From IMG/VR virus record IMGVR_UViG_3300043444_000523, positions 40,737 through 104,736 of that record: a stretch of DNA of 64,000 nucleotides; one strand, 5' to 3'. Below are positions 206-57,797 of the stretch, piece after piece. The position numbers and the translations under genes are program-made. The DNA comes from a virus. The number at the start of each line of letters is the position of its first letter. Positions within the stretch are counted from its first letter, which is position 1. The notes beneath the pieces were generated by a model, which was given only the letters and a program-made list of their open reading frames with translations, did no database searches and was not told the origin of the DNA.

Positions 206-228
206 AATAGGCGCGAGTCGCGCCTATT
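206..228. repeat. 23-bp dispersed palindrome, copy 1 (perfect)
   Basis: AATAGGCGCGA-G-TCGCGCCTATT; overlaps the stop of ORF 227..907. Confidence 0.95.
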
Positions 229-907
229 AACGACCCGTGTAAATTGCTGAGACCTTTTCAAGAACGCCAGCATTCGTGGCATTGCCTGAATGCAAAATCA
301 TCGGCTCGTTCATGCCGTCAAGCGGCCATTCAGTGATCGCAAGACCAGGGATGGTCCCAACAAAACCAGCAACGCCTTCGCCAGCGTCGGAACCAAGGTA
401 AGTCGTGATGCTCGCAGGGAGCGTGTATTGCGGATGGGCCAAGTTGTCGTTCGGATTCGTGTCCGTGATGATCCCGAAGAACCAGAACGGAGCACCCTTC
501 AGAACCGTCGAAGTCGGCACGTTCGTCGTCATCGTGATCGCCAGCGTCGATACGCTGGAAACCGTGTCGAGAACGTAATTGCCATCGGCAGTCTGGTAAA
601 CGCAAAAATCGTTTGCCGCAATCGCGTTGTTCGATGTGTTCACAGTGCCAATCGCACTGTAAGCGCCAGGGTCTCGCTCAATGTTGATAACGGCTTGAGA
701 AGTCGCAGCCGCAGCAGATGCGAACGTCTTTCCTAATGGCCTCATCACTGTAAGAGTGTGAGCTGTTGCGCCAGCTGTGTACCAAACGCTCGTCAAACGA
801 GTGAAACTCTTTTCACGAGGCGGCACAAGCCGAGTAATCACCGTGCCTGCGGTTTGGGTCAGTTTCCCATGCCCAAAAACGCCATGTCCTGGAATCGAAA
901 TCATCAC
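227..907 (-). CDS. Putative virion structural protein
   Basis: 226-aa Thr/Ala-rich ORF with AAGGAG RBS, in the head operon after the scaffold. Confidence 0.6.
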   Translation of the reverse strand: MMISIPGHGVFGHGKLTQTAGTVITRLVPPREKSFTRLTSVWYTAGATAHTLTVMRPLGKTFASAAAATSQAVINIERDPGAYSAIGTVNTSNNAIAANDFCVYQTADGNYVLDTVSSVSTLAITMTTNVPTSTVLKGAPFWFFGIITDTNPNDNLAHPQYTLPASITTYLGSDAGEGVAGFVGTIPGLAITEWPLDGMNEPMILHSGNATNAGVLEKVSAIYTGR

Positions 908-960
908 TTCTCCTTAGCTGCGTCTGGTGTCGGACAAGCCGATCATGCCGAGCGCACGGG

Positions 961-1899
961 CTAATTGTTGACGACCACTTCGCCTGTCATCGCGTATTGC
1001 TTGCACTGTTCCCAAGTCGCCTTGGGGTTTTTCTTCATGTAATCGCGGGCTTTGTCCAAAGAGTCCTTGCCGAATGCTTCGCCCTTGCCGCTGTTGACCT
1101 TCTGGTCAGTGATCTGGAGGAAGTCGCCAATCGGCGCGCCCTTGGCCGCGTACTGGACTGCTTCGTCTTTTTCCCAGTAGGCAAGAATCTGAGCTGCTTC
1201 TGCTTTGCGAGAGACCTCGTTCATGCCAAGCAACTTCTTCTTGATTTCGGCTTTCTTCTTTGGATCGCCGAGTGCTTTGACACCAGCATATTCAAGCTGG
1301 TAGATGAGGTTGTCCGTGTCTTTTTCAGCGGCCTTGAGAGTCAGCTTGGCCAACTCCGCGTCTTTCTTCGTGCGGTCGCTCTTGAGGCTGGCAATCTCTT
1401 GCCGAAGCCCACCAATCGCGTTGGCAACCTGCTCAAAGGCCTCAGCATAAGTGATGACCTGATCGCTGTTTTGCATCGCAAGAGCCTCTTCGGGTTTCTG
1501 TTCACCTTCCGGCAGCGGGACTTCTTCAGCACCGCCGCTCATTGCTTCCTGAGTGGCCGCTTCTTCAGCCGCCTGTGGATCAACAGGCTGCTCTTCTTGA
1601 CCGCCTTGGTCAGCCATCATGTGTTCGTAGAGTTGTGCCAGACCGTACAGAGTCGGATTGGTCTGGAGTGCGTATTCAAAGTTGGCCAGCCATTCCGCAT
1701 GACCAGGAGGTTCTTGCGGACCTTGCTCAGCACCCATGTCCATCTCGGCATCGGGAGTAGCAGCCTCGCCGCCGCTCTCTTCCTCGCCTTCGTAGGATTC
1801 GGATTCGTGGCCTTCACGCTCTTCGCGGTCTTTTTTCTCTTGCTCTTCGTCTCTCTCGTCAGCCATGATGGCCCCTTTGGAGACCTTGTTATCGGCCAA
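961..1899 (-). CDS. Putative head scaffolding protein
   Basis: Acidic N-terminus, central coiled coil, short C-terminal helical element; directly follows the protease gene; true start may be ~1866. Confidence 0.55.
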   Translation of the reverse strand: MADNKVSKGAIMADERDEEQEKKDREEREGHESESYEGEEESGGEAATPDAEMDMGAEQGPQEPPGHAEWLANFEYALQTNPTLYGLAQLYEHMMADQGGQEEQPVDPQAAEEAATQEAMSGGAEEVPLPEGEQKPEEALAMQNSDQVITYAEAFEQVANAIGGLRQEIASLKSDRTKKDAELAKLTLKAAEKDTDNLIYQLEYAGVKALGDPKKKAEIKKKLLGMNEVSRKAEAAQILAYWEKDEAVQYAAKGAPIGDFLQITDQKVNSGKGEAFGKDSLDKARDYMKKNPKATWEQCKQYAMTGEVVVNN

Positions 1900-2107
1900 A
1901 CTTCTTTGCGAATGATTTCGCTTTGGCAGCGATTCGCGCCGTCTGATAACTGATAGGCGCAGACTGGCTCATGCCATCAAGACAGGTAGATGGGATCGAG
2001 TCAGATTGAAACGCTTGATAATCAGGCGGAACCATCTTTGCCACAGGAAGAGGAGGAGCCATCTTGGCAACAGGCGGCTTTTCAGCCGGAAGAACATCAA
2101 GAACTCG

Positions 2108-5100
2108 CTATTGCCGTTGCGGCTTGAATCCATTAGCCGGACTTGACTGCTTCCCTGATTGAGCAGCAACATTCGGCTTATCGCCAAGAGAATTCCGAAT
2201 CGCCTTCCTTGCGCCAGCAGCAACAAGAGCGACCAAAATTGACTTTGTTAGAGCCCTTCTCTGTGTTCCAGGATCGCCAAGCAACAAGTTTCCGAACTTC
2301 TTCAACGGCGAGTCTTTGCCAAAGTTGATTAACTTCTTTTGGTCTGGATGAGCCCGCTGAATAAACGAAGGCGGGATGTAATCCCCTTCGCCAAACTTCT
2401 GCCCCTCAAGCGTGATGCCGCCCTTCGGAGCACGCGGCCCCTTGGCCATGCTCTTCGGCATGTCCTGCGGAATCCGCATCAGCAACTTCCGGTTCAACTC
2501 GTGCAATTCTTCAGGCGTTGCATTCGAGATGAAGTCGCCGACATGGCCAGAGAGAGTCTCATGCAAGTGCTGCTGCAACTCTTTCTGAACTTCAGGAGGA
2601 GCATCGGCAATGAAGTCACTCACAGTTTGCTTGAGTTCAGGATCGAGTCGCTTTGGGACCGATGGCGATACTCCAAAAGCCTTACCAAGTCGCTTTTTGA
2701 CACTCTCAGACATCTTCTGCCTAATTGCGCCGCCCATCGTCTTTGGCTGAGTTGGGATCGGCTTGCGACCGTCGCCCTCTTGGGCCTTCTTGAGTTTGGC
2801 CTTCTCTTCAGGAGTCGCCGACTCCAGAACTTCGGACGGAATGAATTGACCGCCGATGTACTTCTTGCCTTGAAGAGTCACACCACCAACCGGAGCGCGT
2901 TCGGCTGCGTAGGGAACCGGCCGTGTCTTTGATTGATCGGTAACTGCACCAAGTCCTGCACCGCCAGCAGCACCCATCGTCCCGCCAATGGTAGCACCAG
3001 CAAGTGAGCCAACTGGACCAAGGATGCTCCCACCCACAGCGCCAGCAGCAGCACCGCCAGCACCTCCCATTAACCCACCTTTGGCAAGTCCTTTGAAGAA
3101 GTAAGGGACTGGAGACTTCTTCCCCTTGTTCTCAACCGGCGTGTCCTTCACACCAGCCGCCTTCAGTCCCTTCTCTGCGACCCAACCGACTGGGCCAGCC
3201 ACTTTGCCGCCCATCTTTGAGCCGAGTTTCTCACCGAGGAATCCGCCTGCAATTCCGCCGACTGTAGAAGTGATCGGGGCCGCTGGTCCTCCGAGCATAC
3301 CCAAGGTAGCACCAGCTGCGCCACCGCCGATTGCGCCAACAACTCCGCCAGCGTTGTTGTTCATCTTGGGCTTCGGGACTTCGTACCGGACTGGATTCTT
3401 CTTCCCGGCAGATACAACCGCGCCTTTCATCTTTGGCATGGATTTCACGTTCCTTAGCCACGGAGGATCAGCGTTCCCTGAATCACCTTGGGCAACAGCT
3501 GCAGCAGCCGGAGTCGCAGCCGGTGCAACATCCTTCGGCTTCCTCACATACTTCCTCTTCGGTTTCGGACTGTCCTGAACAGCAGTTGCAGCCGGAGCCT
3601 GTGCCGGATCGGCAACAACCGCTTTCCCAGGTGTTGCATTGGCGTTGATTGAACCAAGCAAATCGTCTCCGTCCGTGCCAGCTGCTTTCGGAGGAGGAGC
3701 ACTTCTTCGTCCAGCGCCTGGGGGCGTTGTCTTTGGAGTCGGCTTATTTGCCGTAGGCGGATTGCCTTTGCCAGCAACTGGAACATCGCCGTAAAGGCCA
3801 GCCAAAATGTCTTTGCCAAGCATCTCTGTCGCAGGTTGTCCAGTATTCCCGCCGTTCATCGGACCAGGGAAACCTCCCTGTGTTCCTGTCGGCGGAGTAG
3901 AAGGCTGACCGGCCAATCGCGCTGGGAATCCAGGCTGAACTCCTCCAGTGTCAGCTGGCAATGCTTCCATTCCAAGCCTTGACGGGAACCCTGGCTGTGC
4001 GCCATTGCTCGCTGCTGGAGTCGGCTTAACTGCCCCAGGAATTACCTTGTTCCTTTCAATCCTCTTTGCCCTATCTTGTGCCCGCTGAGCCACAGATTGC
4101 CTTGCTTGAGAACCCATACCCAACATTGCGCCGCCGCCAATTCCGGTTACACTACCGGCAATAGCGCCTTGTTTGATTGCCGTTCCAAGCCTTGATCGAT
4201 ACTCTTCGTCGGTCTCTCCAGGCTGTTGCCCATCAGCCATAATTCCGCTGCTGATACCAGTCAGCGCAGCACCGCTCAGTCCGCCAAGTGCCGATTGCTT
4301 CAGCACTTCGCTGGTTCGTGGGCTTTCACGCCGGAATTTCTGAACTGCACGAGACATCCTCTGGCCAAGTGATCTGTTGACCGGCGCATACTCTGTCGCC
4401 TGATTCTGAGTCGGTCCCATAGCTTTCCCGATCTGGTCTGCGGCCACCATAGAGCCGACTTGAGCGGCCCCTTGTTGGACAGCCGGATTACGAACTGCCT
4501 TGCCAGCACCTTTCGCAATCGCACCGCCTGCCTTGGCCAACGCTGCGCCGAAGCTGTACTGCTCGGCATCTTTGGTTTTCCCAAGTGCAACGTCGAACTT
4601 GCCATACTGCACCGGCTTCGCTTGCCCCATGCACATCGACTTCTGATCCGGCGTCATGGACCGAGCAAACGACGGCGGGATATGATGGCCAGCCTTAAAG
4701 TGATGGCCACCAATCTCGATGCCGCCTTTCGGGGCACGAAGAGAAGAGGCGTCGTATTTACCAACGGTCTTTCCTGCACCTGGGAAGAGTTCAGCGTTGA
4801 CTTTTTTCATAAACTCGGCCCCCTCTTTCCCTGTGACAATTCTCGTTCCAACAGGCTTCGAAGGGCGAATCATAAACCGTTCTCTTGGGGTCAGACCAGC
4901 AGTAGTGCCAATTGCCATCCCCCTACTAATCAAGGCAGGCACTTGCTCTTTGCTGAAATTGAGTTTCTTGGTCAGACTCTTGATGAGTTCTTGATCGCCC
5001 TTCTCTGGGTCGATTTTCGTCAATTGATGCGTGATTCTGTCGGCCCGTTCCTTGTTTTTCGACGCCCTATCAAACGCAATCTTGGCCAATGTGATCCTTC

Positions 5101-6577: not shown

Positions 6578-7282
6578 CTATTTAAGAGGTTTGGCCCCTT
6601 CGATGTCGTCGATATGTCCGCCCGGCAGCTTTTTACCAGCGTATCCAACTGGCTTTGTCTCTTCTTCGTCAGGCAGCGAATCCATCACATATGCCGGTAG
6701 CTCTACAATGTCGTGATTGCGAGCCTTCCTGATCCGATGCCGACCATCAATGATCTTTGTGACGCCATCCTTGTGCCAAATGAGAAGAGGATGCGACAAA
6801 TCGCATTCTTCTGCCCTCTCCACAAACGCCGGTGAACGGTCATGTTCGTCCGATTCCGAGTCCTGCATGAGTTTTGACAACTCATCGACTGGCACAAACA
6901 TCAACTTGGCCGACTCTTTCGCAAATTCGGCCAATTCGGGGATTCGATACTCCTTGCCACCCTCTTCTAACGACCACGTTTGGCCCCAGAACGGCTCTTT
7001 CTTGCCAACCACCGTGACCGCGTGCTCTTCAGAAGGATCGTCTTCAGTCGGCCTCTTGTGCTCCTCGACAATCAATGCCCCATCATCGCCGATATAAACG
7101 ACCGGATTTTCGTCGTCTTGATTTTCTACAGGCGCATCTTCTTGTGTGGACTCATCTTGTGGACTAATCGGCGCAATTTGCGCCGATTCTTCTGGGTTGT
7201 ATTCGTCGTCTTCGATAAGCAAATCCAATACAAATCCATTTGCATGAATGTGCCCTGAGAAAATCTCTTCCAGTTCAGGCAT
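6578..7282 (-). CDS. ParB/Sulfiredoxin N-terminal-like domain protein
   Basis: PLLIW...IIDGRHRIRKA motif; acidic N-terminus; no HTH evident. Confidence 0.7.
   Translation of the reverse strand: MPELEEIFSGHIHANGFVLDLLIEDDEYNPEESAQIAPISPQDESTQEDAPVENQDDENPVVYIGDDGALIVEEHKRPTEDDPSEEHAVTVVGKKEPFWGQTWSLEEGGKEYRIPELAEFAKESAKLMFVPVDELSKLMQDSESDEHDRSPAFVERAEECDLSHPLLIWHKDGVTKIIDGRHRIRKARNHDIVELPAYVMDSLPDEEETKPVGYAGKKLPGGHIDDIEGAKPLK
7166..7188. repeat. 23-bp palindrome, copy 2 (perfect, in CDS; encodes SAQIAPI)
   Basis: AATCGGCGCAA-T-TTGCGCCGATT. Confidence 0.95.
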
Positions 7283-7283
7283 G

Positions 7284-10200
7284 TTACACCAGATTGTTCT
7301 TTTTCAACACAGCCCAGCACTTCGGGAATTTTGCTTTGGCTACATTTGGCTTGGTTATGGCAAGACGAACATACTCTGCCCACCCCTCGTGAGCATTAGA
7401 CATTGCATATGAACTTAGCGGAGCTTTTTTCTCGTCTTCGTGCAGGATTTCAATAACCCATGCTTTTTTCCAATCAAAATCACTGCTGTAGGACAAATCG
7501 CCCAATTTGCCGTCAATAATATGGCCAATCTCATGGGCATAAACGCTGGACATTCTTGTGTCCGCAAGTTTCCCTTCGTGTTTTATACTCGGCGCGCCGT
7601 CAAGAAACATGCCGCCAGAACCAACCTCGACGGCTCCTCCAACTCTACCGTCATTATCCGTCGCTGTGGATTTTGATATATCTTCAGAAAGCCTCTTTGA
7701 TGTTGGATAGAACTTCACATGCCGAAGGTTCTTCAAAAGCGAGCCTTTCATCTTTGGATTCATACTGGAAATCGTCTTAACAATTCCAGACTTGAACTCG
7801 CTCTTGAGGCCATTCGGAATATCCTTGTCTTTGTCTATTGATGAATGAATCGCTGACACAAGATCATTGCTGTTCTTTGGATTGGCGGAAATGATATTCC
7901 CTTTTATCCACCTGTTTGGGTTTTCTGAAACAGGAGGGCGTGCAAATGCCGCAATTACACCGCCTACAGCCGCTGACGCTACCGCAGACTTACCAGCAAC
8001 AACCAGTGCGTGTTCTACAGAATCGCCTAATGCCATATTGCGTACAAATACAAGAGCCCCAGCAGTAGCAGCACTTCCAAAAGCGCCTTTCAAAAAGTTC
8101 ACAGCCCTTGCAGTAACAACGCTGTGCCCGTGAGTCATTCCTGGAACTTTTTCTTTTCTAACAACAGACGATCTTTTCCCAGGCGACAATGCCGCCTTTT
8201 CGCTCGAACTTGCTCTGGCAATCGCTTCTTTGGGTATAAACTCTCCGCCCTTGAAGTGCTCTCCGCCAACTTCGATTCCGCCCTTGGGGGCATGGACAGC
8301 CTCGTATCCAATTGCCTGATTCATAATCGGTGCAATTTGCGCTGATTTCTGGGAGTACGACTCCAGCGCCCTTGCAACAGCCGGTGCTAACGCGGACGCC
8401 TCTGCATTTGCCAGTTCTTCAAGGGCCACTTCGGACACTTGAATGCCACTACGCCGAATGCGGTTCTTGATCTTGTCCCGAATCCATAGCGATACAGCGC
8501 CTTCGCTGTGGCTGTCCGAAGACGGTTTATTGAGCAAATGAACCAACGCATCTCCAGCCACGTTCTTGGCGACATTTTTGATGTGTGCCCTCAAGTCTTC
8601 AGTCGGCTTGGATTCCGGCATTGGCTTTTCGCCGTCGATGCCAGACATGCTGAGCATCAGCGGCGCATACCGCTCTGCCGCTTCAGATGCCTCGCTCACC
8701 AAGTCTTCCTCAGTGGCCTCGATTCCGGCCTCTTTCATGGCCTCTTGCATCTTGCCCTTGAACAACTCGACAAGGTATTCGTGCATCACCGCCGAGGCCG
8801 GAACTTCATCCTGATAACCGACCATCCACTCGTCATCCTGGCTCGTTACTAAGCTGCCGCCCTTCTTTTTCATGAGCACGTCGAATAGCTTCGGGATGAG
8901 CATCACGCCCTTCTTGATGCCCAACACAGCCAAGTCCATCGTGGCCTGTGTCGCTGCCCGAAGAGCGAGTCTCTTCAAAGCATCTTTCTCGTTTGGAACC
9001 CTAGAAGACTTACCTGTCACCGGGTCTATCACGAGTTTTGTTTCATTAGGATCGATGCCAAGAGAGATTGCTGTCTTATCAAACGCTCCCTGTGCCAACG
9101 GGCTCTTGGCGATGTCTCGCCTCAGTTTCTTAGGGTCTCTGATCATCCGTTCCGCGATCTTGCCAGCGTACTTGGCCGTCTCGTGAGCCGCCTTCGGCAC
9201 GCCTCTGAGGCTCTGCTTCTTGTCAAACGCCTTCGACCGATTGCCGGAATACTGGTCGATGATCCGAAGCGCCATCGTGGCCACGGTGTCTTCGCCAGTG
9301 GCTGTAACTTCGCGCTCACGTTGATAAGCCCGACCACGGGCACGGGCATACTCATGCGGCGTTAGGCTACCGAATTCCTTGATCTTGTTCATCACATATG
9401 GCCGAAGTTTGAAGTCCGTCTTCAGCCAACGCTCGGTCTCTTGGATCAAGTCATACTCGTTGCCCATCAGGATCGGCTCATCAGGCTTCGGAGCCCGAAT
9501 CCCAGCCTGTTCCAGCATGTCATCGACAGTGGCCGGTTTGTCTTCTTGTTTTTCAGACCTGTCCATGCCGGTTTGCTGCGTCTCAGGCTTCTTGCCATGA
9601 TCCTGCGGCCTGGAAGCAGGCATCTCCGGCACTTTCTCGCCTGAAATCGCCTTCTGGCCAGCCAATGCCGCCTTCTCCTCCGGCGATGCGCGGGCAATCA
9701 CAGAGCCAGGAATAAACTGGCCACCTTCGTAGTGCTTACCGGAAATGTCAATACCACCCACCGGCGCACGAGTCGCCTTGTACTCAATCGTGAACTCATC
9801 ATCAGACACCGCCAAATACTCGATCACAAGGCCATCGTTGGCCATCGACACCTGCCCACCCTCTTCAGGCGGGGCCGGATCAAGAGGAACACTCGTCCCG
9901 TCAGCCAAACGAATGTAATTCCCGTCTTCCGTCTCGTCTGTGTTCTCTTCGCCCATGATTTCTTCAAGTATCTGATCAACCGTCATATCGCTGGCCTCTT
10001 CGGCCACTTGCTCGTCCCGCTGGACCTGTTGCTCTTGCTGCTCTTGGGCCGCTTGCTCCTGGGCTTGCTGTTCCTGTTGTTCCGCTTGCTGCTGCTCTGC
10101 GGCTTGTTCTTGGCCCTGTTGCTGCACTTGGGCCTCTTGATCTTGCGGCATCTCTTGAGGCTGGCCCTCTGCTGGAACTTGCATCTGTTGTTGCGCAGCT

Positions 10201-11723
10201 GCTTGCTGTTGCTGGGCCTGCATTTGCTGCTGCATCTGGGCTTGTTGGGCCTCCATCTGAATCTGCGTTTGCGCCTTGAGCAACTCAATCTGCGTCTCTG
10301 TTTGAACCTTGGACTGAACCTTAAGCAACATCTCCTGGTTAAGAATTTCATCGTCAGGCTCAGGAGCCTTGAGGCCAGCGTTGGCCAAAAGCTCGTCTTT
10401 CCTGACAGAGCCGCCCATCTGAAACACCGCCGAAGCATTCTTCAACTTCGCATCGGCCTTTGGATCATCAACATCAAATACAAATCTGACCCTGAAGTTG
10501 GCCTTGGGGAAATTCCATCGCTGAATTACAGGGATATAATCTTCAGAAAAAGTGTCGGCCAAATTGTTTGCGTCAAACTTCAGGATGCGCCATTTAGTGT
10601 TCTCATGGAACTGAGATACTCCGCTGCCAAGTCCCGTTGCCTCTGCATTGGCGCTCAAAGTCTGGCCGATGATCAATCGCTCGATGTGCTGCTCAAAGTA
10701 TTCCTTGACGATATTGATCAGGATGTTGATGCCGCCGCCTTCAAACCGAAGCAAATCAACACCGGCGGTATCCTTGCTCTGCCCACGGGTCTTCGGCATT
10801 GCGATGGCGTATCGTTCGCCGACGTTTTGGGCTGCGGCCTCGGCTTCTGCCTTGGAATTTGGATTGCCTTCATCATAGTAGAACACCATGATGCCACCGA
10901 TGCTCATCTTCTTCAGGTGGTTGATCGCCCACCCAAGCATCTCGTCACGAAGCTGGAAATTCCAGTAAATCTGAGACCGCAAGCCAACGCCATGCACGCC
11001 GCCTGACATCTCGCCTTCAAAGAAGTCGGCGTCAACGCACTGGTGTTTGTGGATGATGAACCGCTGCCGCCACTTCGGGTCTTTCAGCCGAAGCACCATC
11101 GACCTTTGATCCGAGAAAAGGTCTTCTTCCTTGACGATGCCGCGTTCTTTCAACGTCCGGCCAATAGAGTGATTGACCATCACCCTTGGAACATCGTCAT
11201 GGCCGTACAGGATTTTGTCGCCATTGACCGGCTTGTGCCCGACGACTCCAAGCCGATTCTGGCCATCAATCGGAATCGCGCCCCACTTGACCTGATTCGC
11301 GTATCGGCCATACCAGATCGCCCAAGCCAGCTGCCAAACGAACGGCGTCCACCGCGACGTATTGGCCACGATCTTCGACATATCATCAGTTACGGCCTTT
11401 TGAATCTTGCTCTTTTGGTTCTCAGGCTCAAGATGCCAGCCAAGAGCCGAAAGCTGAAGGAATCTCTCGTTCATGCATCCCAAAACGAACGCATCACGAA
11501 GCATCGCCAGCGCGTTTTCGCGGCTGTGCTTCGTGGCCTCGTCATGAGTCCATCGATGAGACCGAGTTACGGATTGATAAATTGATGAGAATGTTCTGTG
11601 CTGCGGCAACAGAAAGCCGCCCTCGTCTTCGATGGGTCGGCCATTGTGATCAAGCAGCCGAAGCGGTCCACTCCCGTTTCGGCTCATCAGGCCATTAACG
11701 TCTGGTTCTGGTAGCAGTGCCAT
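7284..11723 (-). CDS. Portal protein (DUF935/Mu gp29-like) with a ~1000-aa extension ending in a zinc metallopeptidase domain
   Basis: Portal-like motifs AIWYGRYANQVKW and IERLIIGQTLS...GLGSG...FHEN; Gln-rich linker; C-terminal VYAHEIGH...SSYAMSNAHEGWAE zincin motif. Confidence 0.8.
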   Translation of the reverse strand: MALLPEPDVNGLMSRNGSGPLRLLDHNGRPIEDEGGFLLPQHRTFSSIYQSVTRSHRWTHDEATKHSRENALAMLRDAFVLGCMNERFLQLSALGWHLEPENQKSKIQKAVTDDMSKIVANTSRWTPFVWQLAWAIWYGRYANQVKWGAIPIDGQNRLGVVGHKPVNGDKILYGHDDVPRVMVNHSIGRTLKERGIVKEEDLFSDQRSMVLRLKDPKWRQRFIIHKHQCVDADFFEGEMSGGVHGVGLRSQIYWNFQLRDEMLGWAINHLKKMSIGGIMVFYYDEGNPNSKAEAEAAAQNVGERYAIAMPKTRGQSKDTAGVDLLRFEGGGINILINIVKEYFEQHIERLIIGQTLSANAEATGLGSGVSQFHENTKWRILKFDANNLADTFSEDYIPVIQRWNFPKANFRVRFVFDVDDPKADAKLKNASAVFQMGGSVRKDELLANAGLKAPEPDDEILNQEMLLKVQSKVQTETQIELLKAQTQIQMEAQQAQMQQQMQAQQQQAAAQQQMQVPAEGQPQEMPQDQEAQVQQQGQEQAAEQQQAEQQEQQAQEQAAQEQQEQQVQRDEQVAEEASDMTVDQILEEIMGEENTDETEDGNYIRLADGTSVPLDPAPPEEGGQVSMANDGLVIEYLAVSDDEFTIEYKATRAPVGGIDISGKHYEGGQFIPGSVIARASPEEKAALAGQKAISGEKVPEMPASRPQDHGKKPETQQTGMDRSEKQEDKPATVDDMLEQAGIRAPKPDEPILMGNEYDLIQETERWLKTDFKLRPYVMNKIKEFGSLTPHEYARARGRAYQREREVTATGEDTVATMALRIIDQYSGNRSKAFDKKQSLRGVPKAAHETAKYAGKIAERMIRDPKKLRRDIAKSPLAQGAFDKTAISLGIDPNETKLVIDPVTGKSSRVPNEKDALKRLALRAATQATMDLAVLGIKKGVMLIPKLFDVLMKKKGGSLVTSQDDEWMVGYQDEVPASAVMHEYLVELFKGKMQEAMKEAGIEATEEDLVSEASEAAERYAPLMLSMSGIDGEKPMPESKPTEDLRAHIKNVAKNVAGDALVHLLNKPSSDSHSEGAVSLWIRDKIKNRIRRSGIQVSEVALEELANAEASALAPAVARALESYSQKSAQIAPIMNQAIGYEAVHAPKGGIEVGGEHFKGGEFIPKEAIARASSSEKAALSPGKRSSVVRKEKVPGMTHGHSVVTARAVNFLKGAFGSAATAGALVFVRNMALGDSVEHALVVAGKSAVASAAVGGVIAAFARPPVSENPNRWIKGNIISANPKNSNDLVSAIHSSIDKDKDIPNGLKSEFKSGIVKTISSMNPKMKGSLLKNLRHVKFYPTSKRLSEDISKSTATDNDGRVGGAVEVGSGGMFLDGAPSIKHEGKLADTRMSSVYAHEIGHIIDGKLGDLSYSSDFDWKKAWVIEILHEDEKKAPLSSYAMSNAHEGWAEYVRLAITKPNVAKAKFPKCWAVLKKNNLV
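8325..8347. repeat. 23-bp palindrome, copy 3 (in portal CDS; encodes SAQIAPI)
   Basis: AATCGGTGCAATTTGCGCTGATT, two changes from consensus. Confidence 0.8.
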
Positions 11724-11753: not shown

Positions 11754-12008
11754 CTAAAGTCTGGTAGCCGACTGAATTGCCCAGACAATCAAGTTGCCGA
11801 TGACCGTTCCAACCAAGATCGAAGCGGTCAGAACCAATGACCACTTGAACAAACTCGGCAAAGGAGGCCGCTTGTCGATGATCTCGATTCCGCCTTTGAC
11901 CGGCACTACATCAATGTAAGGCGGCTTGATGATGTCTATGTGGACCGGATGGCCATTCTCAGGCCCATACTCGACATCGTACCCGTCATCGTCCTGTTTG
12001 TAGTCCAT
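11754..12008 (-). CDS. Small membrane protein
   Basis: ATG at 12008 (MDYKQDD) with GGAG RBS; one C-terminal hydrophobic helix. Confidence 0.55.
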   Translation of the reverse strand: MDYKQDDDGYDVEYGPENGHPVHIDIIKPPYIDVVPVKGGIEIIDKRPPLPSLFKWSLVLTASILVGTVIGNLIVWAIQSATRL

Positions 12009-12027: not shown

Positions 12028-12050
12028 AATAGGCGCGAGTCGCGCCGATT
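12028..12050. repeat. 23-bp palindrome, copy 4
   Basis: AATAGGCGCGAGTCGCGCCGATT; overlaps the stop of ORF 12049..12357. Confidence 0.95.
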
Positions 12051-12357
12051 ATTGCATGTCCCGAAGTTCTTGAGAGGTCTTCCCGCAATCAGGGCATCGG
12101 TCAAGTTGAGGGTCGAACTTGTTGTGGAAGCACTTATCCGGCTCTTGGGGCTTCTCCACTGAATCAATGCTGCCAAACGACACCTTGCCGGATTCTACCA
12201 CGGCGTCACTCGGCAAATTCGTCTCTACTTTCGCTGGCACGCCCATCTTGGCCAATAGCCCAGTATCACGAAGCACAGTCATCATCTCGTTGACCGAGCA
12301 GAAACCAAGCTCATGCCAGCCTTGACCGTCGTGCCATTTATAGTACAGGCCACTCAT
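12049..12357 (-). CDS. Hypothetical protein with C-terminal Cys motif
   Basis: ORF coupled (ATGA overlap) to the upstream gene; CxH...CxxC. Confidence 0.55.
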   Translation of the reverse strand: MSGLYYKWHDGQGWHELGFCSVNEMMTVLRDTGLLAKMGVPAKVETNLPSDAVVESGKVSFGSIDSVEKPQEPDKCFHNKFDPQLDRCPDCGKTSQELRDMQ

Positions 12358-12614
12358 TTCGACTCACCACCGTCTTGCGGCACTTGCTGCATCAAATGGC
12401 CGAGTAATCCCAAACTCGGAATATCCCTGAACGACTTGTAGCCGACCGTGGCACACCAAATCTTGTACGACAATTCTAGGCAATACGCTTCGGCGCACTT
12501 CGCATGAGACTCCGAGCTTTCAAACGACGAACTTTCGCTGATAACGCCTTTGAGTTCACCGGCCCCTTTTGTGATGTGCTTGATGGCCGCATTGAATTCT
12601 GAATAGTCAATCAT
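12354..12614 (-). CDS. Hypothetical protein
   Basis: ORF with ATGA overlaps at both ends. Confidence 0.5.
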   Translation of the reverse strand: MIDYSEFNAAIKHITKGAGELKGVISESSSFESSESHAKCAEAYCLELSYKIWCATVGYKSFRDIPSLGLLGHLMQQVPQDGGESK

Positions 12615-12778
12615 TTGTGCCCCTTGATAAAGGAAAGAACCACGCCCCTGAAATACGAAGACAAATCGCGGCCAGCAACCTTACGAGCGGCCTTCATCTC
12701 CTCTTGCGTGAGGAGAATCTGAAGCCGCTCGGTACGCTTCATGTTTTTAGGCATTGCCGTTCTGCCGCGTTTTCGCAT
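12611..12778 (-). CDS. Ribbon-helix-helix DNA-binding protein
   Basis: 55 aa, below the track cutoff: ...KRTERLQILLTQEEMKAARKVAGRDLSSYFRGVVL..., an RHH pattern; divergent from the MTase. Confidence 0.6.
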   Translation of the reverse strand: MRKRGRTAMPKNMKRTERLQILLTQEEMKAARKVAGRDLSSYFRGVVLSFIKGHK

Positions 12779-14333: not shown

Positions 14334-14546
14334 ATGAAGCCAACTCAGCAGACTACAAAACAGGTTAATAGACCATCTCGGTCATGCGTTTGTGCCACTT
14401 GCACTCTTGACGAGAGGCTCAGAAGCAATGGCTTCAAGATTCTAGCTAGGCCAAGAAATTCTCAGCCGATCTGGATAAAGGACGGGAAGCAGTTTCTTCA
14501 GTCTGACGCCGTTCAGCAGTGCAAACCTTTGCCAGCAAAAAGGTAG
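14334..14546 (+). CDS. Hypothetical protein
   Basis: GAGG RBS; CxCxxC; follows the previous gene. Confidence 0.45.
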   Translation: MKPTQQTTKQVNRPSRSCVCATCTLDERLRSNGFKILARPRNSQPIWIKDGKQFLQSDAVQQCKPLPAKR

Positions 14547-14692
14547 TCACGCGATTCCCAACCGAAAGCGTAAGCCGTCTGAAAAGCCGCCTTCGTATTG
14601 GGCAGAGCATGTAAGAATTGTCGAAGAAGAAAACAAAAAGCTGCGAACCATCATAGTTGACATGATGCACAAAATGCAGCAAGCAGCTGAAA

Positions 14693-15375: not shown

Positions 15376-16449
15376 TTAGCCCGCGACTTTTGGGGCCGGT
15401 TTACTGACGGCCCAAGCCCTCAAATTGAGGGCAGCGTTTCGGTCGGCATTTGTGGAGTGCCCGCAATGTTTGCAGACAAACTCAGACTGGCTCTTTCGGT
15501 TGGCACGCTCGCAGTGGCCGCAGACATGGCACGTCTGGGAACTGTATCGCGGGTCAACCAAGACTACGGACACGCCTGCCCGTCGGGCCTTGTACTCCAC
15601 AAACTGCCGAAGCTGAAAGAAACTCCAGTTGCCAAGTCGTCGCCGGAAACGCCTAGAAGCCGTTTGCTCACAACGGTCACGCAAACCGGAGAGGTTCTCC
15701 AGAGCGATACCGATGCCGAGTGTCTTGGCTTTGCCGACAAGACTCTTGCTGATGGCGTGGTTTACCCATGCTTGATAGCGGGACTGCCGCCCCGCCATCC
15801 GCTTCAACCGTCGCTTGGCAGACTTGGTTCCTTTCCGTTGGTACTGCTTACGGGCTGTCATCCGGCGCTTGCGGTTTCGTTCGACACCCGCACCGGAGAA
15901 CGATTCCCCGGTGGAGTCGGTAGCAATCTGGACAATGCCAAAGTCACAACCCAAGTATTCGGTAACCGGCTGTGGGTCGGAAACGGTCGCCTTGACTTGA
16001 ACATGCAGAAAGTAACCGCCATCGCGTTTGACAAGTGCAGCGCTGGTCGGAACCTTCCCCGCAAGCGCGGTTCGCTGAAAGTCGCCAAGTTGGGTCGTCA
16101 GTCGATGCCGCCCATGCAACAGGGTCAGGCTGAAAGTCCAGTCGGATTCTCGGAAGGAAAAGATTCGAGCATCGTAGTTCACGCTCGTAGGAGCAAATCG
16201 GGAGAGGTCTTTTACGGCGGCAACGCGACCGATGGCACGAACGGCCAGATTCGCCGACAGCCCGAACGCAGTCCGCGTTTCGCGGTAGGCCAATTTGTGC
16301 AGAGCGAGATGTCCTTTAGTCTCTGTCTCTGCCGCACGACGAACCAAGTGATTGCACGCCGCAGCGAAAGCCACAAGTGTAACGTCGATTTCAACCGCCT
16401 GTTCAGCGGTCGGAACCAGCTTGCAACAGATGGTACGGATGGCTTCCAT
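15376..16449 (-). CDS. tnpB: RNA-guided endonuclease TnpB
   Basis: RuvC LGCDFG / IALENL / ADRNAALNL; CHVC...CKHC zinc finger. Confidence 0.95.
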   Translation of the reverse strand: MEAIRTICCKLVPTAEQAVEIDVTLVAFAAACNHLVRRAAETETKGHLALHKLAYRETRTAFGLSANLAVRAIGRVAAVKDLSRFAPTSVNYDARIFSFRESDWTFSLTLLHGRHRLTTQLGDFQRTALAGKVPTSAALVKRDGGYFLHVQVKATVSDPQPVTEYLGCDFGIVQIATDSTGESFSGAGVERNRKRRMTARKQYQRKGTKSAKRRLKRMAGRQSRYQAWVNHAISKSLVGKAKTLGIGIALENLSGLRDRCEQTASRRFRRRLGNWSFFQLRQFVEYKARRAGVSVVLVDPRYSSQTCHVCGHCERANRKSQSEFVCKHCGHSTNADRNAALNLRAWAVSKPAPKVAG

Positions 16450-16842
16450 TCAGACACCCTTCTGGTTCTCGATGTACTGCTTGATAACGGCCAGAGGCGC
16501 GCCGCCAACAGTCGCGACAAAGTAGGAGTTCGTCCAGAGCGATGGCAACCGGCTACGCAACGCTGGGTACTCCGTGCGCAGGAACCGGGACGAACGGCCC
16601 TTGACCAACTTTATCAGCCGGTGGATTCCGAACTGTGGATCGACTTCAACGAGCAGATGTACGTGATCGGGCATCACTTCCATCTCGATCAGTTCCGAAC
16701 GGGTTTCAAGGATCACTTCCCGAATCAGATTCTTGAGCCGTTCATCAACGCCGTCGATCAAGACCTTGCGACGATACTTGGGGCAGAAAACAACGTGGTA
16801 CTTGCAGCAGTAGGACACGTTGTTATTGCTCTTGAGCCTCAT
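16450..16842 (-). CDS. tnpA: IS200/IS605 Y1 HUH transposase
   Basis: YHVVFCPKYRR, DHVHLL (HUH), LWTNSYF, YIENQ. Confidence 0.97.
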   Translation of the reverse strand: MRLKSNNNVSYCCKYHVVFCPKYRRKVLIDGVDERLKNLIREVILETRSELIEMEVMPDHVHLLVEVDPQFGIHRLIKLVKGRSSRFLRTEYPALRSRLPSLWTNSYFVATVGGAPLAVIKQYIENQKGV

Positions 16843-16948
16843 TCCTGTATTATACACGTCCGAGATGTCGAATGCCACCTCAGTAGCGTGGATTCGCCGT
16901 CTCCATTCCTCCCCATGCCTGAAGGCAGGGGTTTCTTGGAGACATTTC

Positions 16949-17044
16949 ATGAACAGCAAAGCCAAATTTTGGTTTGTGTTCGCTATTGTGTCTTCATGCT
17001 TTTGTGCGTTCTTATTCTCAATCTACTCATGGAAAGTCTGGTAG
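16949..17044 (+). CDS. Small hydrophobic protein between two mobile elements
   Basis: MNSKAKFWFVFAIVSSCFCAFLFSIYSWKVW; removing the IS gives AAAGGAGATTTC-ATG. Confidence 0.5.
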   Translation: MNSKAKFWFVFAIVSSCFCAFLFSIYSWKVW

Positions 17045-17059
17045 TGGCTCAACATGGTG

Positions 17060-17087
17060 TTGACAACCTGGACGACCCTGATAGAGT
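17060..17087 (+). promoter_or_regulatory. Sigma70-like promoter for tnpB, probably leaderless
   Basis: TTGACA-16 nt-TAGAGT preceded by TGA; GTG start 7 nt downstream; the -35 box overlaps the left TIR. Confidence 0.55.
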
Positions 17088-17094
17088 TATCCTT

Positions 17095-18270
17095 GTGCTG
17101 AAAACGATTACCTATCGTCTGTACCCGTCGCGGGAGCAGGAATCTTTCCTGTTCTACTTCCTCTACATTGGCCGCAAGATTTACAACGACGCACTTGCCG
17201 AGCGCGTCCGGTTCTACAAAGACACTGGCAAAAGCCTGACTAAATTCACGCAACAGATGGACCTGACGATACGCAGGTCAATTAGCCCGGTGCTTGCCTC
17301 TGTCCCTGTCTGGATTGAGCGAGACTCCCTGTCTAGGATAGACAAGGCATTCGCCAATTTCTTCCGCAGAGTAAATGAAGGGAGTGCCAAGCCTGGGTTC
17401 CCGCGATTCAAGTCAGCCAATCGCTGGAACAGTTTCTCAATGCCTATCCAAGGCAGTGGCAAGAAACTGGTGCAAGGAAATAGAATCCGCGTGGCCGGGA
17501 TTGAAGGAACAATGCCAAGCCGTGGCGGGCAACAAATACTTGGAAAGATCATTGTCCAGAGAATTGTTCATCGAGCAGGCAAGTGGTTCTGCAAGTTCGT
17601 AGTTGATGACAAACTCGACCCACCGCCTATTCATCCTGTAAAGTCGGCTATCGGCGTCGATGTTGGTCTGAAATCGTTTGCAACGCTTAGCAACGGTTCA
17701 ACGATTGAGAATCCACGATTCTATCGGGGACTGGAACTCAAGCGTGCCCATCGCAACGTGTCTCGTAAAATCAAAGGCAGTCGGAACCGATGGAGAGCCG
17801 TTCGTCGTCTTCAATCGGTTTATGAGAAAGTCAGAAACTTACGCCACAATTTTACGCATCACGAGAGCAAGAGGATTGTCAATGACCACCAACTGATTGT
17901 TGTCGAAAAACTGAACATAGCTGGCATGGCCAGAAGCCGATTTGCCAAAAGTATCTTGGACGCTGCATGGGGTCGGTTCATATTTCAATTGCGTTACAAA
18001 GCTGAAAACGCTGGTTGCGCATTCGTTGAAGTTGACCCCCGTGGCACAAGCCAAGATTGCAGCAAGTGCGGCCAGACCGTGCCAAAGAAGTTGTCGGATC
18101 GTGTCCATAAATGCTCTTGCGGTCTCGTGCTAGACCGCGACCATAATGCGGCGTTGAACATCCTTCAGCGTGCCGTTCGATCAGCACCCGGCCCCGGTAG
18201 GTGGATCGGTAAAGCGTGTGGAGAGGCTACGAAGACTCGGCGAAACACGAAGGCTTCAACACCATGTTGA
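17095..18270 (+). CDS. tnpB: RNA-guided endonuclease TnpB (second, unrelated copy)
   Basis: LKTITYRLYPSREQ N-terminus, GFPRFK, RuvC IGVDVG / VVEKL / DRDHNAALNIL all intact, CSKC...CSC finger. Confidence 0.93.
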   Translation: MLKTITYRLYPSREQESFLFYFLYIGRKIYNDALAERVRFYKDTGKSLTKFTQQMDLTIRRSISPVLASVPVWIERDSLSRIDKAFANFFRRVNEGSAKPGFPRFKSANRWNSFSMPIQGSGKKLVQGNRIRVAGIEGTMPSRGGQQILGKIIVQRIVHRAGKWFCKFVVDDKLDPPPIHPVKSAIGVDVGLKSFATLSNGSTIENPRFYRGLELKRAHRNVSRKIKGSRNRWRAVRRLQSVYEKVRNLRHNFTHHESKRIVNDHQLIVVEKLNIAGMARSRFAKSILDAAWGRFIFQLRYKAENAGCAFVEVDPRGTSQDCSKCGQTVPKKLSDRVHKCSCGLVLDRDHNAALNILQRAVRSAPGPGRWIGKACGEATKTRRNTKASTPC

Positions 18271-18360
18271 GCCACTACCGAAGTGTTCTACAATAGGCGT
18301 CATTCGCATGTACGAGCGATAGGCAAGCCGAAATGCTTGAGAAGAAGAAAGGAAACAACA

Positions 18361-42907: not shown

Positions 42908-43309
42908 TTGGCCGATCTTTTCTTAATGGAGTACGTCCATGCGCAAATTCCATGCCGTCATTCGACGGCACAAGAAGGGTTTCATGTGGCTGGTTGTATC
43001 GTCTTGTGGCCGCTACTTGCGCGGCTACTGCGCCTCTGCTGCCATTGGGCAGCGGCGAGTTGAGGCGTCTATTGCCTGCTTCAGCGAGTGCCCGTGCTGC
43101 GCTAAGTCTTAGCATTTGCGCCACTACTGCGCCGATGTTCGGCCTAGTAGCGGCGCGTTCATTCCGGGAGTATGATATGTTCGAGTTGCCGCGTGTTGTC
43201 CGCTTGCGCCGTGCACAATCTGGAGTACGGGCACGACCTTTGCCGTGCAATCGGCCTCTGTTGAGGCCGAATCAGAAGCCTAACAAGGTCTTCGTGGCCT
43301 TGTTCTCGA

Positions 43310-43332
43310 AATAGGCGCGAGTTGCGCCTATT
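43310..43332. repeat. 23-bp palindrome, copy 10
   Basis: AATAGGCGCGAGTTGCGCCTATT; supplies the TAG of the ORF ending at 43314. Confidence 0.95.
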
Positions 43333-43551
43333 ATTGCGGTGTACTTGTATATCTCAGGTTTCCTGCCGACATGGCGGCAGGGAGAAATAGAACCAGGAGA
43401 TTCGCCAGCCAATTGCGTCCACTGAGAGACGCCCAACCGATATGGCGATTAACCCAAGGGTGCGTATGAAGAAGTTCTACCTCTTTTCCATTTACTAGAC
43501 GACGAAGATCGACGACGGTAAGGCCGGGGGTCGAAAGACTCCCGGCACGTT

Positions 43552-43618
43552 GGGGATACCGCAGGGCGGGCTTGTGGTTTGCAACCACGATGGCAGGATT
43601 CGAGTCCCTGTGTCTCCA
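43552..43618 (+). tRNA. Atypical tRNA-Ala(TGC) with a reduced D arm
   Basis: GGGGATA/TGTCTCC acceptor with G3:U70 and A73; TGTGG/CCACG stem, loop TT-TGC-AA; T loop TTCGAGT with an A53-C61 mismatch. Confidence 0.7.
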
Positions 43619-43657
43619 CTACATCTCTGCCAATCCACTTACCTTCAAGGGGACGTA

Positions 43658-55834: not shown

Positions 55835-55840
55835 TTCCAG

Positions 55841-55882: not shown

Positions 55883-56091
55883 TCCTCCAAGGAGAAGGCT
55901 GTGAATGAACTTCTGAAGCAAGTGATTTCAAGGTTTGAGACGGGGCCGCAAGAGTCCCAAACAGTCTATGTCCAACAGCCGGAGCCGCGCACCGAGTCTG
56001 ATCGGACATGGTTTGTGGCCGGAATGGTTACAGCCGGTGCAATCTGCGTAGGATTGTTCGGCTTGGCACTGTGCGCGTTTACTGAAAAGGA

Positions 56092-56688
56092 ATGACCATG
56101 CGACTTGAACAGCTTGAATCCCGCGAAACTCCATCGATCACGATGACGCACGAGGGCGAAACCTATGGCCGGATCACCATCCAAGGAGATGCGGCCAACG
56201 ACCGAATCATGTTGACCGACTACGGCAACGGTCGGTTTGTTCTGAACGGGGTCCGGCACGATTACGGGATGCCGCTGGATTTCAAAATCTGCGGCGGCAA
56301 AGGCAATGACACGATCCGCGTCTCGTCAAAGTCATTCTGCTGGATCGAAGGCCAGGACGGAAACGACACGATCTACGGCGGGAGCGGCGATGACCTTTTG
56401 TACGGAGGAAGCGGCCGAGACTCCCTCTACGGCGGATACGGAGACGATTATCTTCAGGGCGGCGACGACAACGACTATCTGAACGGTGGGGCCGGAGATG
56501 ATTACCTGAGCGGCGGCAGAGGGGCAGATACTCTCTACGGCGGCTACGGGATCGACACGATTGGAATCTGGATTGGCCAGACTGGGCCAGCGGACAAGTT
56601 CTACTTCGCGCCCAATGATTACTCGTTGTGGTTCAGGAAGGACGGCACTTCGACTTCGCCGTTCTATCTCCAAACGGCTTTTGAATAG
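56092..56688 (+). CDS. Planctomycete-signal protein with RTX-type Ca-binding repeats
   Basis: MRLEQLESRETPS N-terminus; about eight GGxGxD-type nonapeptides. Confidence 0.85.
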   Translation: MTMRLEQLESRETPSITMTHEGETYGRITIQGDAANDRIMLTDYGNGRFVLNGVRHDYGMPLDFKICGGKGNDTIRVSSKSFCWIEGQDGNDTIYGGSGDDLLYGGSGRDSLYGGYGDDYLQGGDDNDYLNGGAGDDYLSGGRGADTLYGGYGIDTIGIWIGQTGPADKFYFAPNDYSLWFRKDGTSTSPFYLQTAFE

Positions 56689-56696
56689 GAGACGCA

Positions 56697-57776
56697 ATGA
56701 AGCCTTTAACACGATCTGAGGAATATCTGTTTTCGCTGTGCGATTCGACGGCCACAACGGTTACTGCTCAAAGGGCCGCGATCAAACGATCCGGGCTTAC
56801 CGGAATGACGGCGAAACAGGTTGAGAAAATCCAGCGGGAGAACTGGAATAAGACCAAAAAGTCAAACCCAGGAGTCCCGATATTTGTTCTGGCTGCTAGA
56901 TACAGTGATTGTCCAGACTGGGAGCGCAGGACGCCAAGAGGGACTCCGGCTGGAGAAATACTTTACAGCAGTGGCCTGATGTATCATGTGTACAATTCCA
57001 TCGACTGGGAGCGTTTAAGGAAACATCAGTGCGGAGAATCAGTGGCTTTTGGCGCTCGAATCCGAGAGAAGACAAACGACAAGACCGGCTGGGATCGAGT
57101 TGTTTGGAGATACGCAGATTATGGATTGGTTCTTTCTCCATGCCGTAAGAAGGTGGCTGTTTCCACAAAGGAAGGGGAGTGGAAGATAAGCCCGTACTGG
57201 CGCGGCTATTTCAAAGCCAATGGCAGAGTTTTTTGCGATGATCAGAGATATAGAAGTAGCTTTCCAACTGGATATTCCGTCCGCCTTCGTGACTGCTTGA
57301 GAATCTTGCTCAACGCCGGATTTAAGGCATATCTGACGCGACAGACACCAGAGCAGATCGCAACCGGGTCAGGCGAGCGCGGGCGGACTGGCGAATTGGT
57401 TCTTGTCGTGGATTTTGGGAAGCACGGGTTTTACCACGCCTTTGCGAACAGATGGATTGTTCGTGCTGTAGCCGCAGCACTGAAGGCACGAGAGGAAGAA
57501 TACGAGCAGAAAGAGCTAGACGCATTGCTTGCCAGAGATGCGGCCAACATCCATGTTTGTTACGCCGACTCCATCAAAGCTGGCAACTGTCCGGCTGGAA
57601 CGGAAAAGTTTGGCGAGCAACACGGCCTGGATCGCAAGCGGCATTACACCGCGAAAGAGCTCCTAGAAATCAGCAATGGCAGCACGCGATTCGTCCGGGC
57701 AGCGGTGCTCACGGCACTGCGCCGGGAACGCCGTGAAATGGCACAAGGGTTCTCTGTATTGGCAGACCATCGATAA
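56697..57776 (+). CDS. Hypothetical protein
   Basis: 359-aa ORF, AGGAG RBS, DSIKAGNCPAGT motif. Confidence 0.7.
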   Translation: MKPLTRSEEYLFSLCDSTATTVTAQRAAIKRSGLTGMTAKQVEKIQRENWNKTKKSNPGVPIFVLAARYSDCPDWERRTPRGTPAGEILYSSGLMYHVYNSIDWERLRKHQCGESVAFGARIREKTNDKTGWDRVVWRYADYGLVLSPCRKKVAVSTKEGEWKISPYWRGYFKANGRVFCDDQRYRSSFPTGYSVRLRDCLRILLNAGFKAYLTRQTPEQIATGSGERGRTGELVLVVDFGKHGFYHAFANRWIVRAVAAALKAREEEYEQKELDALLARDAANIHVCYADSIKAGNCPAGTEKFGEQHGLDRKRHYTAKELLEISNGSTRFVRAAVLTALRRERREMAQGFSVLADHR

Positions 57777-57797
57777 TCGGCGCATTTCGCGCCTATT
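57775..57797. repeat. 23-bp palindrome, copy 11
   Basis: AATCGGCGCATTTCGCGCCTATT, identical to copy 7; overlaps the TAA of 56697..57776. Confidence 0.92.

Follow-up and report, generated by a model that had tools for sequence, protein, structure and literature searches.

The DNA analysed here (the window, 64,000 nucleotides) spans bases 40737-104736 of the 104,736-bp IMG/VR virus record IMGVR_UViG_3300043444_000523 (an uncultivated phage), which is estimated to be 87% complete, and carries among its portal, terminase (terL), ParB-like, IS200/IS605 and tRNA genes a dispersed 23-bp palindrome that is the subject of this analysis. Each copy consists of two inverted half-sites, W-AAT-M-GGCGC and GCGCC-K-ATT-W, around a centre that is 5 bp long in all copies. 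A first, sequence-only reading had listed eleven clear copies and a degenerate one. A consensus search allowing up to two mismatches returned exactly these eleven (206, 7166, 8325, 12028, 18987, 22416, 25535, 35928, 36060, 43310 and 57775), where the chance expectation in shuffled sequences was 0.00, and a looser search recovered the degenerate copy at 35900. Extending the scan to the whole contig, as that reading had proposed, gave 18 copies in the 104.7-kb record (G000) with the degenerate one counted, a density of 1 per 5.8 kb; positions prefixed with g follow the numbering of the whole record and lie outside the window.

Eleven columns were invariant across the aligned copies. The motif is symmetric (ATAG...CTAT) and its central base follows no orientation rule. 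Isolated half-sites are nearly absent (one in 105 kb), so the unit is the full dyad. Within half-sites, positions 4 and 10 were linked, with A+G or C+A in 32 of 36, and the two haplotypes (A4+G10 and C4+A10) combined freely between left and right halves. A search for near-identical phage records found none, and Rfam over the window returned tRNA and no other family. Apart from the motif, 6-bp palindromes were strongly avoided by this genome (598 observed in total against 1449 expected) as well as by that of the sister phage introduced below, with 16 of 64 and 26 of 64 such words, respectively, never occurring; GGCGCC, for example, was observed 0 times against 37 expected. The avoidance points to heavy restriction-enzyme pressure, and it makes an enriched 23-bp palindrome all the more conspicuous.

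Placement of the copies and their reading register

Genes were called with a crude hexamer model and checked against Pfam and PHROGs. Nine of the 18 copies carry the stop codon of the upstream gene, one lies 19 nt past a stop, two (25535 and 43310) occupy stretches without convincing open reading frames (ORFs) and six lie inside ORFs; in addition, the copy at the end of terL is read through by a convergent gene. Copies are present at two of the three to four convergent junctions of the genome (18987 and 22416). The placement at stop codons and in a single coding frame had been recognised from the sequence alone and stands, but a strict register between motif and stop had been overlooked. In every stop-bearing copy the codons fall as xAA followed by TAG. 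A flanking T makes the stop TAA; with any other flanking base, the stop is the TAG at motif positions 3-5. A TAA or TAG stop is provided in this one register by nine of the 11 gene-end copies (P ~0.001 against a one-in-three expectation), and six of seven intragenic readings use the same register with TCG replacing TAG (P ~0.007 against one in three), both P values being only rough because the copies may not be independent. The intragenic peptide is (K/E)-S-A-(Q/R)-(L/I/V)-A-P-I, with the degenerate copy at 35900 as the sole exception.

A layout of stop, palindrome, ribosome-binding site and start codon recurs in this phage and in its relatives. Neither a conserved promoter nor a conserved flank accompanies the motif, and promoter-like boxes stand beside only two copies. 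A sigma-70-like TTGACG-17-TATA lies just downstream of copy g14523 (G000 14546-14590), and TATAAT lies 5 nt upstream of copy g23724, which itself directly precedes an ATG (G000 23747-23770). Read-through of the stop, or a recoded TAG, was considered and rejected, as no suppressor tRNA was present, several copies have TAA-TAG double stops and the long ORFs are open under the standard code.

At the left end of the window, a perfect copy (206-228) marks a gene junction, its last two bases falling within the TAA stop of ORF 227-904 (-) and the next gene (-) beginning 16 nt beyond; its RNA hairpin has a calculated energy of -15 to -17 kcal/mol. A second perfect copy, with both halves of the C/A type, is found at 7166-7188, 96 nt past the portal stop and inside the ParB-like ORF 6578-7282 (-), where codons 32-40 read ESAQIAPIS. 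The portal-fusion ORF 7284-11723 (-) contains a copy with two mismatches at 8325-8347 (amino acids 1126-1134, KSAQIAPIM), whose hairpin is weak on the mRNA strand (-4.9 kcal/mol). At 12028-12050 the motif lies at a junction and supplies the TAA stop of ORF 12049-12357 (-), 20 nt ahead of the start of ORF 11754-12008 (-). Both ParB-like genes of the genome (G000 2255-3322, denoted L048, and window 6578-7282) hold a copy in a hypervariable or acidic linker; the 355-aa ParB-like protein has a DGRRRE box, a segment resembling a helix-turn-helix (HTH) and a C-terminal four-Cys zinc ribbon.

The copy at 18987-19009 lies between the convergent ORFs 18418-18975 (+) and 19005-19214 (-) and contains the TAG stop of the minus ORF. 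At 22416-22438 the motif gives the TAG stop of terL (20615-22420, +), and the convergent ORF 22395-23069 (-) reads KSAQLAPIS across it, so that this copy belongs to both the stop-codon and the in-frame group, as had been claimed. The 69-aa product of ORF 19005-19214 (-) is an inverted duplicate of the TerL C-terminus (22203-22420, +); both 3' duplicates end at a palindrome and together bracket a ~3-kb segment with terL. Distant relatives have terL next to the portal gene and in the same direction; in this phage terL faces the other way.

Two copies lie in ORF-poor stretches of 0.6-0.95 kb: that at 25535-25557 in the ~0.95-kb stretch 25452-26408, and that at 43310-43332 in the stretch ~42908-43550, ~220 bp upstream of tRNA-Ala (43552-43619). 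Each stretch holds one palindrome and had no Rfam match at gathering thresholds. Three copies are packed within 183 bp, namely the degenerate one at 35900-35922, which has two mismatches, lies 28 bp from the next copy and is read in another frame (EIVAKCADI), and those at 35928-35950 (KSARVAPIT) and 36060-36082 (KSAQLAPIS), both inside ORF 35703-36137 (-). The last copy, at 57775-57797, lies at a junction and contributes the TAA stop of ORF 56697-57776 (+), the next gene beginning at 57825. The five in-frame coding copies named in the sequence-only reading (7166, 8325, 22416 on the minus strand, 35928 and 36060) thus all read E/K-S-A-Q/R-I/L/V-A-P-I. Six copies had been said to overlap stop codons; this holds for 206, 12028, 18987 (minus ORF), 22416 (terL) and 57775, and the sixth, 43310, touches the stop of a spurious-looking ORF. 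Elsewhere in the window, ORF 38946-39305 matches the dATP/dGTP pyrophosphohydrolase family PF04447 (E 2e-21). A Z-base genome was nevertheless rejected, as no PurZ-like adenylosuccinate synthetase (PF00709) was found in the record.

Conservation in a sister phage and the proposed recognition of the motif

Through a profile of TerL homologues we reached a sister phage (IMGVR_UViG_3300044511_000090; G001, also L051) of 74 kb and 67% completeness, which is syntenic with the present one and has proteins ~35-89% identical. It carries seven copies of AATAGGCGC-N5-GCGCCTATT, and two more come from fragments of this lineage in a single metagenome; the copies from both lineages together form the 27-copy set used for the pair statistics below. 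The register also holds in the sister lineage, where one copy shows an in-frame TGA and then at once the TAA of the motif. Six copies occupy orthologous places in both phages, among proteins 40-88% identical. Comparison of the six pairs shows 3 differences in 108 arm positions and 23 in 30 centre positions. Two of the six, the copies at 35928 and 36060, lie in the orthologue of ORF 35703-36137 (42% identical) with the same 132-bp spacing and are preserved down to third codon positions.

The copies in the ParB-like linker and at the end of terL are missing from the orthologues in the sister phage, the lengths being unchanged, and two differences in intergenic copies between the lineages accompany indels of 16 and ~45 bp. 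An in-frame insertion of a 27-bp element found no support, given that neither the ParB-like linker nor the end of terL differs in length between the two phages and that the linker is hypervariable among homologues. A 359-aa gene that is absent from the sister phage adjoins copy 57775, and its far side keeps AATAGGAGACGC at the old gene end, which looks like a decayed arm that gives a TAG stop and serves as the ribosome-binding site of the extra gene. Alignment with the sister phage places this left-arm relic (AATAGGAGACGCAATG) at 56684-56699 (+), at the end of ORF 56143-56688; it is probably a decayed left arm that still forms a TAG stop in the usual register and is now used as the ribosome-binding site of the next gene. 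The terL gene of the sister phage is interrupted (G001 106-3870), with residues 1-174 and 149-531 encoded ~0.9 kb apart and the last 70 residues ~1 kb further; among other TerL homologues, some have Pfam domains of the homing-endonuclease or LAGLIDADG type (PF05204, PF14528).

Variable genes beside some copies could suggest that the palindromes are short homologies or recombinase sites at module boundaries, which would permit cassette swapping as proposed for the promoter early stem-loop (PeSL) cassettes of T4-type phages. The 359-aa gene with copy 57775 on one side and a decayed arm on the other, copy g14523 bounding a block that is missing from the sister phage, and the inverted terL 3' duplicates ending at a copy would all suit this idea, which we nonetheless regard as very improbable. 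The genes on either side of most copies are syntenic in the two phages, a length of 23 bp offers little for homologous exchange, and the conserved intragenic copies would be left unexplained. PeSL cassettes, moreover, join a stem-loop to an early promoter (PMC2839356, PMC4122927). The present motif resembles them as a repeated stem-loop element at gene boundaries, in some cases beside variable genes, but it has no conserved promoter and most of its flanks are syntenic.

The 27 copies also bear on whether it is the DNA sequence or an RNA fold that is maintained. That the two halves vary independently, as first noticed from the sequence alone, was borne out by a covariation score of 0.099 against 0.109 +/- 0.017 in shuffles. 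At pair 4/20, 13 copies have A-U, three have C-G and 11 (41%) are unpaired, and despite this mismatch the outer AAT/ATT is invariant. No two-sided (compensatory) change was seen in the GGCGC/GCGCC core, in which one-sided mismatches occur in five copies, including a recurrent GTCGC variant. Positions 11 and 13 are complementary in 15 of the 18 copies of this phage, and these positions are unable to pair in a hairpin because the loop would be 1 nt. The tails after the stem (TATTWYN) appear to be poor U-tracts. Taken together, the lack of covariation, the invariant outer arms, the complementary positions 11 and 13 and the poor U-tracts favour sequence recognition on a symmetric site over selection for a fold.

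Our preferred reading, held tentatively and at somewhat less than an even chance, is that each copy is a predicted dyad-symmetric recognition site of a sequence-specific factor acting on double-stranded DNA. Recognition in trans is best supported because the arms are invariant, the centre is free, compensatory changes are absent and intragenic copies are conserved between the two phages. We infer that a protein binds the motif. The simplest candidate would be a dimeric DNA-binding protein, encoded by the phage or perhaps by the host, each subunit of which would read one W-AAT-M-GGCGC half-site and leave the 5-bp centre unread. Selection would retain such sites all round the genome wherever the sequence is tolerable. 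One such place would be the few bases that separate a stop from the following ribosome-binding site, where the TAA or TAG of the site would be the stop itself; another would be disordered protein linkers, where TCG in place of TAG would be read as S-A-Q-L-A-P-I. As to the consequence of binding we can only guess, and our preferred guess is a global action at gene boundaries, as a roadblock or silencer in the manner of stoperators or KorB sites, with the transcript hairpin as a side effect or a helper.

Several points weigh against this proposal. None of the candidate binders, be it ParB-like, of the XRE type or a ribbon-helix-helix (RHH) protein, is backed by co-occurrence or by Pfam. Simple DNA binding alone leaves the single stop register of nine of the 11 gene-end copies (P ~0.001) unexplained, and the stable transcript hairpin together with the copies at two of the three to four convergent junctions would suit an RNA or terminator role. 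The linkage of positions 4 and 10 could reflect copying from existing copies instead of selection by a binder. Lastly, one and the same 16-bp palindrome occurs in two related phages with 30-50% protein identity, which is awkward for a fast-evolving binder encoded by the phage.

Owing to the strict stop register and the stable hairpin, a role at the RNA level stays the main rival. The palindrome would then be a gene-end element of the transcript, a 9-11-bp hairpin with the stop in its 5' arm that would either stabilise 3' ends or cause partial termination or attenuation in both directions; we consider this possible but doubtful. In its favour, the transcript hairpins of intergenic copies reach -12 to -20 kcal/mol, the stop falls inside the 5' arm in one register in nine of 11 gene-end copies, both copies at convergent junctions (18987 and 22416) would be well placed, the layout of stop, palindrome, ribosome-binding site and start recurs, and a simple scan scored two of the five copies within 1-20 kb as terminator-like. 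Hairpins of bacterial repetitive extragenic palindromes (REPs) near stops are likewise transcribed and supply TAG stops (PMC3733652). The same hairpins, however, show neither covariation nor compensatory change, their loops are randomised between two lineages in which the arms stay invariant, 41% of copies have a mismatch at pair 4/20, and at 8325 the wobble-type changes are on the non-transcribed strand. The tails (UAUUWYN in RNA) appear to be poor U-tracts, and a canonical terminator with a real U-tract is present elsewhere, at 19868-19849. Intrinsic terminators are placed at the ends of transcription units, but six to seven of the copies are intragenic, including two that both phages share, and most others fall within co-directional gene runs; the density of ~1 copy per kb in relatives would be excessive for terminators. 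In this model the action of the element would depend on translation, because a ribosome terminating in the arm would melt the hairpin.

Candidate binders, host repeats and mobile elements

The sequence-only reading had proposed a system of protein-binding sites, with several candidate binders. Recognition by a trans-acting factor remains the best-supported part of that proposal; no evidence emerged for any of the named binders, and the parS/matS-like and packaging readings found no support. Profiles for ParB_N (PF02195), ParA (PF13614) and integrases gave no match in the record, which is 87% complete. The two ParB-like proteins have PHROGs matches only, and their family is often fused to DNA methylases (MT-A70, N6_N4, Dam). 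The copy in the ParB-like gene is absent from the sister orthologue. Nor do homologues of the protein occur together with repeated palindromes, the sister phage being the only one of 66 homologue-bearing viral loci (8 kb or longer) to show them. The RHH candidate (ORF 12611-12754) had no Pfam match, and the XRE-type HTH protein that the phage encodes (40436-40651) was likewise without support as a binder.

An abundant host repeat, either a REP or a miniature inverted-repeat transposable element (MITE), which the same reading had named as a refuting case, was not found in the genomes searched. GTDB species representatives gave 39 scattered single matches and no multi-copy genome, a free-centre motif gave two single matches in 401 Planctomycetota, and none of the host loci with matches was related to the phage. 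This absence holds for the genomes searched. A motif search of IMG/VR returned only the sister phage and two single matches, and a metagenome scan yielded mostly single matches, judged to be at about chance level, together with the fragments of the sister lineage.

The phage also carries an IS200/IS605 unit, with tnpA at 16450-16842 (-; Y1_Tnp, E 1e-42) and tnpB at 15376-16449 (-). A second tnpB (17095-18270, +), forming another unit of this family, stands beside it within the region 15376-18330, with 24-bp inverted repeats at 17040-17063 and 18256-18279. The long ORF 15457-18270 on the plus strand, which runs over the first unit, is an artefact. In the sister lineage the IS200/IS605 element is located elsewhere, and a related tnpB unit adjoins the portal gene (L184). 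A tie between the motif and these elements was rejected, as neither the hairpin at the end of the element (CCCCaTGCC-tgaa-GGCAGGGG) nor the pair of 24-bp repeats around the second tnpB is related to it.

The transposase nevertheless gives some footing to the idea of a REP-like selfish palindrome, which we judge to be unlikely. Such an element would be propagated by gene conversion or by a Y1/HUH transposase acting on single-stranded DNA, and would persist only at sites where it does no harm. Bacterial REPs are palindromes of 20-40 bp with GTAG/CGTC tags between unidirectional and convergent ORFs (PMC3733652). The motif shares with them its length, its position downstream of genes in such gaps, termini that supply TAG stops and some in-frame intragenic copies (PMC3733652). 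The free assortment of the A4+G10 and C4+A10 haplotypes between halves, the Y1 transposase encoded by the phage and the 16-45 bp indels that accompany intergenic copies would fit as well. On the other side, the Y1 transposase is part of an ordinary IS200/IS605 unit with tnpB, which the motif does not flank, and no Y1 gene was seen in the sister contig (67% complete). Target-site duplications are absent, the coding copies in the ParB linker and at the terL end differ from the sister phage without a change in length, and six copies have long been held at orthologous places. REPs are chromosomal, imperfect, tagged at one end and linked to REP-associated tyrosine transposases (RAYTs), whereas the present motif is phage-specific, symmetric and not linked to the Y1 transposase. 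A high copy number in a searched host genome, a one-sided GTAG or CGTC tag and a flanked RAYT-type Y1 gene were thus all lacking.

Palindromes of relatives and known systems

To place the motif in its clade we surveyed 58 TerL-related loci of at least 8 kb. Three of them, with TerL 35-40% identical, carry dense palindromes of their own at ~1 per 1.1 kb. These are perfect, either 16 bp without a spacer or 17 bp with a 1-nt centre, a form that suits a dimer on DNA better than a hairpin. The word GTGGTCGCGCGACCAC has 42 copies in a 47.6-kb provirus record and 17 copies in a 15.7-kb contig, and GTGCGGGC-S-GCCCGCAC has 41 copies in 46.5 kb. Two portal fusion proteins (L063 and L084) contain five in-frame copies each, read as x-G-R-A-T-T. 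In two relatives the same TerL codons hold two different palindromes, and the ancestral peptide L-x-G-R-P-x-P was already similar to each encoded peptide, which suggests that the sites arise in place where coding allows, like uptake sequences (PMC2817400).

A clade-wide system may be envisaged on this basis, in which every lineage has a gene-boundary palindrome of its own, with as many as one copy per gene, that turns over in place, although as a specific proposal we hold it to be rather unlikely. The word may be set by the host, because the two phages sharing the identical 16-bp GTGGTCGCGCGACCAC have proteins just 30-50% identical. Possible readers of such a host-set word would be a host nuclease, a recombination enzyme, to which the palindrome would present a double Chi-like signal independent of orientation, or a defence system with which the phage must comply or which it must evade.

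Repeats of other kinds were seen in further viral loci. In L056 (IMGVR_UViG_3300013121_000037, 21.5 kb) an asymmetric hairpin repeat with a CTGCGCAAAA/TTTTGCGCAG stem and a conserved 13-nt loop starting with GTAG occurs at ten scattered places, in either orientation, and part of it (GCAAAAGTAG..AGTTGC) recurs beside the left end of tnpB in L184. A CRISPR-like array of 14 repeats with a period of ~73 bp lies at 1275-2300 of L077. L085 holds 37-bp tandem repeats and a cluster of the 16-bp palindrome GATTACCTAGGTAATC (1249-2900 and 9198-9495), the cluster resembling an operator region.

Three constraints follow for any explanation. The first is that the arms stay constant around a freely drifting centre, the second that the site is tied both to the stop codon and to a single reading frame, and the third that corresponding places in related phages hold different palindromes, which number up to one per gene. 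By comparison with published repeats, the feature appears to belong to a known but unexplained kind, the dispersed dyad repeats of phages without a known reader or role, for which a 23-mer with 18 sites and a sister phage offers a compact test object. Should the reader prove to be a host factor or a global regulator, this would account for a widespread but unannotated layer in the way phage genomes are organised.

KorB operators (OB) of IncP plasmids and the centromere sites of N15 are palindromes dispersed over the replicon, some far from promoters or intragenic, that are read by ParB-family proteins. The present motif is similarly dispersed round the genome and in part intragenic, but no Pfam ParB_N or ParA match was obtained here and the homologues of the ParB-like proteins are not accompanied by repeated palindromes. 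The stoperators of Cluster A phages, bound by gp71 in L5, block elongation and not initiation from dispersed sites in short gaps (PMC9283540, PMC6550527). Many dispersed sites at short intergenic gaps are common to both systems. Stoperators, however, are 13-bp asymmetric sites of temperate phages, read by a monomer and oriented with transcription, whereas the site here is symmetric and has no orientation. Searches of the 87% complete record yielded no integrase or partition genes, and it does encode an XRE-type HTH protein. DNA uptake sequences are over-represented words that occur in poorly conserved protein regions and preferred reading frames (PMC2817400), as does the present motif; they belong to competent bacteria, are not palindromic by themselves and number hundreds to thousands, compared with 18 copies of a phage palindrome.

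The closest published case is the 17-bp repeat TGTTCGG-N3-CCGAACA of the Cluster O mycobacteriophages (Corndog and relatives), present in 34 copies between and inside genes (PMC4351075). The arms are longer here (9-11 bp), GC-rich and flanked by A/T, so that the transcript forms a stable hairpin. The site also carries stops locked to one register, and its density is 1 per 5.8 kb as against ~1 per 2 kb. In other respects the two agree, with invariant inverted arms around a short free centre (11 invariant columns; 23 of 30 centre differences), many intergenic and coding copies (18, of which 6-7 are coding) and shared positions (six orthologous). The Cluster O repeat is absent from the host and from other phages (PMC4351075), and the present motif is not a repeat in the searched host genomes or in unrelated phages. 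Cluster O phages have no integrase or parAB but encode a protein with a ParB-like domain (PMC4351075), just as this phage has a ParB-like protein and no integrase or parAB profile match, and for their repeat the authors inferred a dimeric DNA-binding protein of unknown role (PMC4351075).

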